Shown here in pieces: positions 55,734 through 58,576 of a stretch of 64,000 nucleotides of DNA. The DNA lies in assembly GCF_030013205.1 (NCBI RefSeq), contig NZ_CP122648.1; one strand, 5' to 3'. Made by a program: the position numbers and the translations under genes. Each line of letters starts with the position of its first letter. Within the stretch, counting starts at the first letter, position 1. Below the pieces are notes generated by a model. It was not told where the DNA came from, made no database searches, and saw nothing but the letters and a program-made list of their open reading frames with translations. Origin of the DNA: Escherichia coli. GTDB lineage: Bacteria; Pseudomonadota; Gammaproteobacteria; Enterobacterales; Enterobacteriaceae.

Positions 55734-55869
55734 ATCCATTCCGGGATTTTTGCCTCAAGCTCAAGCTGTGTGGTAAAGCCGCTGTTATCAATGGTGTGCT
55801 CGGCTTTTGCAATAATCCAGTCCTGATTATCAATCTCGCTTTTAAATCCTGTTACCGTGCCATGCATTT
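55734..55869 (-). pseudogene. P2 gpD-like tail protein, C-terminal fragment cut off by the IS66-family insertion
   Basis: minus-strand translation ..GFKSEIDNQDWIIAKAEHTIDNSGFTTQLELEAKIPEWIAE-stop resembles the P2 gpD C-terminus; continues the frame of the 58577-59264 fragment once the IS and one ATGCATTT copy are removed. Confidence 0.7.
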
Positions 55870-55899
55870 GTAAGCGACTCGTCAGAACCGTATTGATAT

Positions 55900-57471
55900 T
55901 TACTGAGAGCTCAGATCAACTTTCCAGGGCAACAGATCGCGTACCCGGTTTGCCGGCCAGTCCTGGATATGTTCAATGACGTAACGCAGCCACTTTTCTG
56001 GCTCCACATTGTTCAGACGGCATGTGCCGATCAGCGAGTACAACACCGCCGCATGTTCACCACCGCTGTCGGAACCCGCGAACATCCAGTTTTTCCGGCC
56101 TACGGCCACTCCCCGTAAGGCGTTCTCTGCGGTGTTGTTGTCGATTTCCACCCAGCCATTACTGCAGTACACGTTCAGTGCATCCCACTGTTTCAGCAGG
56201 TATGCGAACGCTTTTGCCGTATCTGAGTGACGCGACAGTGTTTTCATCTGTTGCTGTATCCAGTCATACAGTGACTGCATCAGTGGCGCGGCTCTGGCTT
56301 TTCTTGCCGCCAGACGCTGTTCTGCTGAACAGCCCCGGACCTCTGCCTCGATGGCATACAGTTCACCGATACGCTGCAGGGCTTCCGTGGTGATGTAGGT
56401 GGGCGCTCTTGCATGCACATCGTGGATTTTTCTCCGGGCATGAGCCATACACGCGGCTTCCGTTATTCTGCCGGATTCGTATAACGCCCGGTAACCACCG
56501 TAAGCATCGGCCTGAAGCACACCGCTGTAACCGGCCAGGTGATTTTGTGGATGGATACCTTTCCGGTCCGGACTGTACGCGAACCAGACCGCCGGGGGCA
56601 TCTGTGAACCGGCGTTACGGTCATCACGGACGTAGACCCACAGCCGGGCTGTCCGGGTTTTACCGCTGCCCGGCTCCTGGACCGGGACGGGGATATCATC
56701 AGCATGGACTTTACCGGGCATCAGCACATACTGGCGCAGGACGTCATACAGCGGCTCCAGCAGTTCAGCAACAGCACCTGTCCAGCGCCCCAGTGTGGCA
56801 CGGCTCAGCTCCACTCCCTGACGACGGTATATTTCTGACTGGCGGTATAACGGCAGATGGTCTGCATATTTCCCGGTGACAACATGGGCCAGAAGCCCCG
56901 CTCCGGCATAACTGCGTGCAATGGGTTTTGAAGGTACTGGTGCCTGTACGATATGGTCGCACCGGCAACAGGCCTGTTTCGGACGTTGTGTTTCGATAAC
57001 CTTAAAGGCGCTGCTGATAAGCTCCAGTTGCTCTGACACATCACATCCCAGAGAACTGAGTTCACCACCACAGGCAGGACAGCATTCCTCTTCCGGCCGG
57101 ATAACCCGGGTTTCACGGGGAAGTGAGGCCGGTAACGGTTTACGGGCTGAAGACTGGCGCAGGGCGGATGGCAGTACCGGGTCATATTGCTCACCCAGCG
57201 TTTCCGCCATTTCTTCCTGAAGTGCGCTGATTCGCTCCTGTGCTTCCTGTATCTGCCGTTCGGTTTTTGCACGAAGTTTTTCTGAGCTTTTACCGAACTG
57301 CATACGTTGCAGTTTCGCAACCAGCGCCTTCAGCCGGTTGATTTCGGAAGCATAAGCCGCCACCCGCTGTGAGAGCAGGCGGTTGTATTCAGCCATCTGG
57401 CGGATGGTGTCCTGTTGCGTCTGCAACAGTGCCCGCAGGCGGGCGTTCTCATGAGCAAGTGAGGTGTCCAT
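55900..57471 (-). CDS. IS66-family transposase (TnpC)
   Basis: 523-aa ORF with N-terminal coiled coil, Cys-rich zinc-finger-like segment and DDE region. Confidence 0.85.
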
Positions 57472-57490
57472 ATCCTCACTTTACAACGGG

Positions 57491-57838
57491 TTATATGCGG
57501 ATTCCAGCGCGTTCCGTTCGTTTCGGGTGCTTCCAGTTGATACCTTCAAGAAGCATGGATAACTGAGCCGGAGTAAGGTGCACCTTGCCGTCACGGGTGA
57601 CTGGCCAGACGAAGCGGCCCCGCTCCAGGCGTTTGGTGAAGAGGCACAGTCCGTCACTGTCAGCCCACAACACTTTTATCTGGTCACCCCGGCGTCCGCG
57701 GAAGATGAACAGGTGTCCGGAGAACGGGTCATCCTTCAGGACGTTCTGAACTTTTGATGCCAGGCCGTTAAAGCCATTTCGCATATCGGTGATACCTGCA
57801 ACCAGCCAGATACGCGAACCTGCAGGGAGAGATATCAT
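57491..57838 (-). CDS. IS66-family accessory protein TnpB
   Basis: 115-aa ORF MISLPAGSRIWLVAGITDMR.., characteristic IS66 OrfB. Confidence 0.85.
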   Translation of the reverse strand: MISLPAGSRIWLVAGITDMRNGFNGLASKVQNVLKDDPFSGHLFIFRGRRGDQIKVLWADSDGLCLFTKRLERGRFVWPVTRDGKVHLTPAQLSMLLEGINWKHPKRTERAGIRI

Positions 57839-58515
57839 CAGTGGCTGCTCCCTTTTATTTCGCGGATAAGTGTCTGTAATAACGCCGGCGTCAGTTTACC
57901 TTTAAGCCTGAGAGTTCCGGCCGGCAGAACCAGCTCACAACACAGACTGTCGGACGGTGTATTTATCTGCTCTGGTTCCTGTGCGGGGGCCGGGATTTTA
58001 TTATCCGGCTCCGGCGTTAACGTCACGGGAAGCAGTGCCGGCATATTTTTTCCGGAAGGCAGCAGGCCACCTTTCCGGTATTGATGGCGCCAGTTGAAGA
58101 GCAGGTTATCGTTGATTCCGTTTTCCCGGGCGATCTGCGCCACACAGGCTCCGGGCTGCAGTGACTGCTCCACTAAGGCGATTTTAAACTCATAAGGGAA
58201 GTTGGGCCGCCGGGGACGTTTTTTTACCACGGGGGCTTCGGATATAACGGTGCTTTCAGGACGTACGACTGGTACCGTGGAAAATTGTCCGTAAAGGCAG
58301 GCATCAAGTTCCTGCTCCGACATGCCTGCGGGCAAAGGCCACGAAAGGCCAGCTCTCCGAAAGCGCACGAACATACTACAAACTGTTGATTTTGGTACAC
58401 CCAGGCGACGCCCGGCCACAACCCGGGGTAAATGTTCTTCAAAGTGAAGACGTAAAGCTTCAGTGATCCAGGTCCGGTGTTTCATACGATAGTGTCCATT
58501 AAAAATGATGGACAT
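57838..58515 (-). CDS. IS66-family accessory protein TnpA (OrfA), unusually long
   Basis: 225-aa ORF upstream of and overlapping tnpB; true start may be internal. Confidence 0.6.
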   Translation of the reverse strand: MSIIFNGHYRMKHRTWITEALRLHFEEHLPRVVAGRRLGVPKSTVCSMFVRFRRAGLSWPLPAGMSEQELDACLYGQFSTVPVVRPESTVISEAPVVKKRPRRPNFPYEFKIALVEQSLQPGACVAQIARENGINDNLLFNWRHQYRKGGLLPSGKNMPALLPVTLTPEPDNKIPAPAQEPEQINTPSDSLCCELVLPAGTLRLKGKLTPALLQTLIREIKGSSH

Positions 58516-58576
58516 TATTTTTGTAGAGCCGGAGGAAACAGACCAGACGGTTTAAATGAGCCGGTTACATGCATTT

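Follow-up and report, generated by a model that had tools for sequence, protein, structure and literature searches.

A complete insertion sequence assigned to ISCro1, with its target-site duplication, in a prophage gpD remnant of porcine Escherichia coli

We consider it very likely, with a probability of about 0.95, that gene D of a P88-like prophage, lying between ihfA and btuC on an Escherichia coli chromosome, received a complete copy of ISCro1 in its 3′ third by a single transposition event. The window, that is, the whole 64-kb stretch of DNA analysed here, follows the E. coli chromosome from topB to pheST and ihfA and then enters a prophage remnant that extends up to btuC. The element at 55870–58568 is the only ISCro1 copy in the window, and its genes and gpD point in the same direction, on the minus strand. 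The features on which the analysis rests, in window coordinates, are as follows.

55724–55869, minus strand: gpD 3′ fragment, the last 46 codons and the stop, including one copy of the duplication; identical to residues 322–367 of E1739 gpD
55862–55869, no strand: left copy of the target-site duplication, ATGCATTT, by direct sequence reading
55870–58568, minus strand: ISCro1 (IS66 family), complete, 2,699 bp; 100% identity to annotated copies
55870–55891, no strand: tnpC-end terminal inverted repeat, GTAAGCGACTCGTCAGAACCGT; agrees with the opposite end at 16 of 22 positions
55900–57471, minus strand: tnpC, DDE transposase, 523 aa; NCBIfam transpos_IS66 (NF033517), 478 bits, cut-off 180
57491–57838, minus strand: tnpB, IS66 accessory protein, 115 aa; NCBIfam IS66_TnpB (NF033819), 129 bits, cut-off 50
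57838–58515, minus strand: tnpA, IS66 accessory protein, 225 aa; NCBIfam IS66_access_TnpA (NF038385), 296 bits, cut-off 150
58547–58568, no strand: tnpA-end terminal inverted repeat, GTAACCGGCTCATTTAAACCGT as reverse complement, by sequence reading
58569–58576, no strand: right copy of the target-site duplication, ATGCATTT, by direct sequence reading
58577–59264, minus strand: gpD middle fragment, codons about 91–321; blastn match to an intact allele, PHROG 52
59265–59686, plus strand: IS2 left-end fragment, about 422 bp, starting TAGACTGGCCCCCTGAATCTCCAG where gpD homology stops
59682–62247, plus strand: tape-measure gene without its first approximately 240 bp; PHROG 28 'tail length tape measure protein'

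The ends of the element, 55870 and 58568, were set independently of the flanking DNA by 100% identity over the full 2,699 bp to other copies, many of them annotated in RefSeq as 'IS66-like element ISCro1 family'. The original prediction, made from the letters of the sequence, had placed an 8-bp duplication right outside both ends, and ATGCATTT is indeed found at both positions. This octamer occurs three times on the plus strand of the window (17767, 55862 and 58569), which is about the density expected by chance; because the element ends are fixed independently, the abutting pair is not a chance match, for which the likelihood would be about 4^-8 = 1.5e-5. In-silico excision of 55870–58576 produced a single minus-strand frame that reads through ...AELYPEMHGTVTGFKSEIDNQDW... 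to the gpD stop at 55724, so that the two gpD pieces rejoin in one frame as predicted. Used as a query, 600 bp of sequence across the repaired site proved identical at 600 of 600 positions to an uninterrupted gene of E. coli E1739 annotated as 'phage late control D family protein', a natural empty site that contains exactly one copy of ATGCATTT, and the same query matched dozens of further uninterrupted alleles at 97–99.8% identity.

The internal organization of the element is that of the IS66 family, with tnpA and tnpB upstream of tnpC. The first two genes are coupled, the start of tnpB overlapping the stop of tnpA as TGATG (57840–57836), and tnpC follows 19 bp after tnpB with its own GAGGA ribosome-binding site upstream of the ATG. 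All three open reading frames are complete, as had been claimed, and each of their products scores above its curated NCBIfam cut-off. TnpC carries the Pfam domains LZ_Tnp_IS66, zf-IS66, DDE_Tnp_IS66 and DDE_Tnp_IS66_C, and the IS66-type catalytic domain, DDE_Tnp_IS66, is covered over model positions 1–283 of 284 (E = 6e-103). The terminal inverted repeats of the family are said to be imperfect and to begin 5′-GTAA; both ends of the present copy begin with GTAA and match each other imperfectly, and the duplication of ATGCATTT on both sides has the 8-bp (occasionally 9-bp) length of IS66-family target sites. The predicted family assignment thus stands on the NCBIfam scores, the Pfam domains, the GTAA repeats and the 8-bp duplication. 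We also observed that the gpD frame entering the element on the tnpA side stops at a TAA overlapping the tnpA ATG (TAATG, 58513–58517), an arrangement that could couple translation of tnpA to an upstream host gene if the insertion is in that frame.

The element had been said to split the gpD gene. This holds in so far as two gpD pieces rejoin, but the target is a 5′-truncated remnant (codons 91–367) in which IS2 replaces the 5′ end. Intact gpD, as in E1739, has 367 codons, and after excision homology extends over residues 91–367 of 367, which makes the rejoined frame a gene fragment. Positions 58577–59264 correspond to 7301–7988 of an intact gpD allele (L002) at 99.4% DNA identity by blastn and 98% protein identity, and this middle fragment matches PHROG 52 'tail protein' with E = 6e-124. 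DNA homology to gpD ends at 59264, at codon 91, and the sequence that follows, which replaces the promoter side of gpD as well as codons 1–90, matches thousands of IS3-family/IS2 copies and is annotated in RefSeq as a partial transposase. Megablast rows put the IS2 boundary at 59251, which we attribute to a chance-extension artefact, as direct alignment gives 59265. The open reading frame at 58515–59345 (276 aa) was rejected as an N-terminal piece of gpD, since gpD homology stops at 59264 and IS2 begins at 59265; it is chimeric, beginning within IS2 and ending within ISCro1.

At its other end, the IS2 fragment meets the tape-measure gene with a 5-bp overlap (59682–59686), beyond which homology to the L002 locus resumes, 59682–62400 corresponding to 10935–13653 at 99.96% identity. 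The loss amounts to 2,946 bp relative to E1739 and takes in gpD codons 1–90, the genes for sheath, tube and E/E′, and the beginning of T. The tape-measure remnant is a pseudogene in the RefSeq annotation; the insC frame of IS2 is fused to it in frame, giving a 978-aa chimeric open reading frame (59311–62247). At least two IS-related lesions affect gpD, of which ISCro1 is one. Because gpD is 5′-truncated and lies in a dead prophage with adjacent tail genes deleted, the ISCro1 insertion probably has no phenotype, and we regard it as most likely neutral.

The remnant between ihfA and btuC is a non-functional P2-type prophage of the P88-like group (Xuanwuvirus). Over its last 20 kb the window matches strain K_EC180 at 99.99% identity. 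At the ihfA-proximal prophage edge, genes for a hok/gef toxin and for a zinc-finger late activator of the ogr/Delta type remain (approximately 51320–51910; L001 7449–8040). They are followed by hxsD, hxsB, hxsC and hxsA (approximately 52160–55560; L001 8293–11690), a His-Xaa-Ser radical-SAM cargo convergent with gpD, which might conceivably serve the phage as an accessory or defence function. Elsewhere in the window, the K_EC180 annotation (L014) marks an IS1397 (IS3-like) element with a programmed frameshift between topB and gdhA (approximately 1517–2865) and the type III effector gene espL1 just upstream of thrS (approximately 41418–43316).

The hxs-linked gpD locus is carried by approximately 80 genomes, and we searched it with flank-plus-IS chimeras in both orientations over approximately −240 to +1100 bp (about 1,340 bp). 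Besides the insertion in the window, three further ISCro1 insertions were found, given below at their window-equivalent positions.

Approximately 58635, same orientation as in the window: ISCro1 insertion in MS1657, duplication TTGTAGTTG
Approximately 58730, opposite orientation: ISCro1 insertion in VTB96929v, duplication CCATATAA
Approximately 58781, same orientation: ISCro1 insertion in F344, duplication GTTTGCGG

Together with that of the window these make four independent insertions, in different E. coli lineages, within 220 bp (58569–58788) of the 3′ third of gpD; three are oriented one way and one the other, and each has its own 8–9-bp duplication (L005 6405–6412, L006 6259–6267 and L013 5254–5261 for the three equivalents). 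Four uniformly placed points would span 220 of 1,340 bp or less with p of about 0.016, a rough estimate made post hoc. The clustering raises the question of whether insertions in gpD are neutral at all, either because ISCro1 has a regional preference for 3′ gpD or because disruption of gpD is selected, in which case the window would be an instance of a recurrent event. That the four duplications (ATGCATTT, TTGTAGTTG, CCATATAA and GTTTGCGG) all differ speaks for this explanation, as does their recovery from a locus present in only some 80 genomes. Against it, the target sequences have no common consensus, prophage remnants are permissive targets, the gpD 5′ end of the window clone is lost anyway and the statistic is post hoc, and we consider a departure from neutrality possible but on balance doubtful. 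Among the six duplicated target sites, we found no convincing target consensus or resemblance to the IS ends. A 13-bp stretch at 58683–58695, with 85% complementarity to the repeat of the tnpC end, lies in the middle of the cluster but was dismissed as a candidate signal because it adjoins no insertion. That the 3′ third of gpD is a regional ISCro1 hotspot is likewise a tentative proposal, one we would sooner bet against than for. If true, it would point either to an unrecognised target-selection rule of IS66-family transposases, for which target choice and mechanism are poorly characterised, or to selection for silencing of gpD transcription converging on the hxs operon. We treat the gpD clustering as a lead and not as a finding, and as the sole part of this analysis that might repay more work.

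In 14 complete genomes the gpD–ISCro1 junction was found in identical form, each time as one unbroken match; all are from pigs or wild boar in South Korea, France, Belgium and the Netherlands and including two O139:H1 strains. The gpD–IS2–T junction is present in the same 14 genomes. A search of 5,426 complete E. coli genomes for one with the IS2 deletion and without ISCro1, or the reverse, which would have shown which event came first, found none. The original prediction had called the insertion recent; the perfect duplication and the identity of the element to other copies uphold this on an evolutionary scale only, whereas the junction is fixed in 14 genomes from Korea and three European countries. 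Since it is a fixed clonal marker, empty-site alleles are not expected at the read level. Together, the two junctions, ISCro1–gpD and gpD–IS2–tape measure, can serve as stable markers for this porcine E. coli clone, which occurs in Europe and Korea.

An insertion common to 14 genomes on two continents is not new, and the copy differs from the commonest ISCro1 allele seen by two SNPs, one of them replacing TnpC I447 by T inside the DDE domain (the F344 and MS1657 copies have I447). It could accordingly be an intact-looking but inert fossil, fixed long ago and deprived of transposition by a change such as I447T. This is unlikely in view of several observations. All open reading frames and both ends are intact, and the exact T447 variant also occurs on plasmids of clone members; on one of these, NZ_CP122720.1, the identical variant occupies a different site, where it is bordered by a 9-bp duplication of its own, GTTCTGACT. 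Moreover, ISCro1-like matches vary from 2 to 9 per chromosome among clone members. The presence of the identical variant at another site and the spread in copy number support, but do not prove, that the T447 variant is transposition-competent, and continued ISCro1 activity is plausible on these comparisons.

According to the preferred explanation, simple transposition, a staggered 8-bp cut at ATGCATTT was filled in and left the direct repeat. By analogy with what is known of the family, TnpC, as a DDE transposase, would bind the GTAA-type terminal repeats, and TnpA and TnpB would act as required accessory proteins, as in IS679. For IS679, TnpA and TnpB have reportedly been found to be required accessory proteins for transposition, with TnpC as the DDE transposase, and the same roles, with both TnpA and TnpB required, are said to apply across the IS66 family. 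An IS2-associated deletion removed gpD codons 1–90, the genes for sheath, tube and E/E′, and the beginning of the tape-measure gene. On this reading the insertion took place in an ancestor of the porcine clone that includes the O139:H1 strains and has been inherited vertically since. The resulting copy is intact and probably still mobile.

Among the other ISCro1 copies examined, three have 8-bp and two 9-bp duplications; the 9-bp form is found in 2 of 6 copies examined (L006, TTGTAGTTG; L010, GTTCTGACT). One copy, L011, has no duplication and lies between an IS2 fragment and a truncated relaxase gene, a setting indicative of rearrangement. Although this copy illustrates that such rearrangements occur, nothing specific favours the notion that the 8-bp repeat in the window is coincidental and the element a product of recombination between two pre-existing copies, and we discount it almost entirely, because the flanks rejoin to 100% identity with the natural empty site, with exactly one ATGCATTT, and a coincidental match would be so improbable.

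ISCro1-related sequence is widespread: 2,657 of the 5,426 complete E. coli genomes contain it, as do 1,993 plasmids from Escherichia, Shigella, Salmonella, Klebsiella and other genera, and thousands of RefSeq copies labelled as ISCro1 family, on chromosomes and plasmids of E. coli, Shigella, Salmonella and Klebsiella, are 100% identical to the element in the window. Reports describe an ongoing expansion of ISCro1 in Enterobacteriaceae and implicate it in the fusion of plasmids and the disruption of promoters (PMC12115866, PMC8764528). The present insertion is already known biology, a textbook simple insertion of a catalogued insertion sequence. It adds one clean ISCro1 data point for which the element, its ends, its duplication and the natural empty site are all in hand.

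Comparison with known systems places both the target and the element. Phages P88, P884B11 and their relatives encode a gpD 94–98% identical to the rejoined fragment. Gene D and the sheath–tube–E–T–U operon of P88 are divergently oriented, as in the window prophage, and the opposite strands of gpD (minus) and the tape-measure gene (plus) are natural in P88-like phages, for which reason we rejected an IS-mediated inversion. P88 also has hok/gef and ogr/Delta at the corresponding edge. The two differ in that the first 90 codons of gpD are missing in the window, and in that P88 is without the hxsDBCA cassette, which the window prophage has between ogr and D. As for the element, IS679 and IS66, founding members of the family, have three genes with coupled tnpA/tnpB, a DDE-type TnpC, GTAA termini and 8-bp duplications; ISCro1 shares all of these, and by sequence IS679 and IS66 are separate elements. 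The chemistry of IS66-family transposition is poorly characterised (PMC12898284). We assign the name ISCro1 because identical copies are labelled 'ISCro1 family transposase' by RefSeq/PGAP and because the published length agrees; no observation contradicted this identification. ISCro1 received its name in Citrobacter rodentium ICC168, in which it is the most expanded insertion sequence with 24 copies (PMC3072379), and an ISCro1 of 2,699 bp that makes a duplication of 8 bp has been described (PMC12115866); a size of 2,824 bp has been given for an ISCro1 in ST131 (PMC8764528), as against the 2,699 bp of that description and of the copy here. In length, 8-bp duplication and tnpA–tnpB–tnpC order, the copy in the window agrees with published ISCro1, from which it shows no structural difference.
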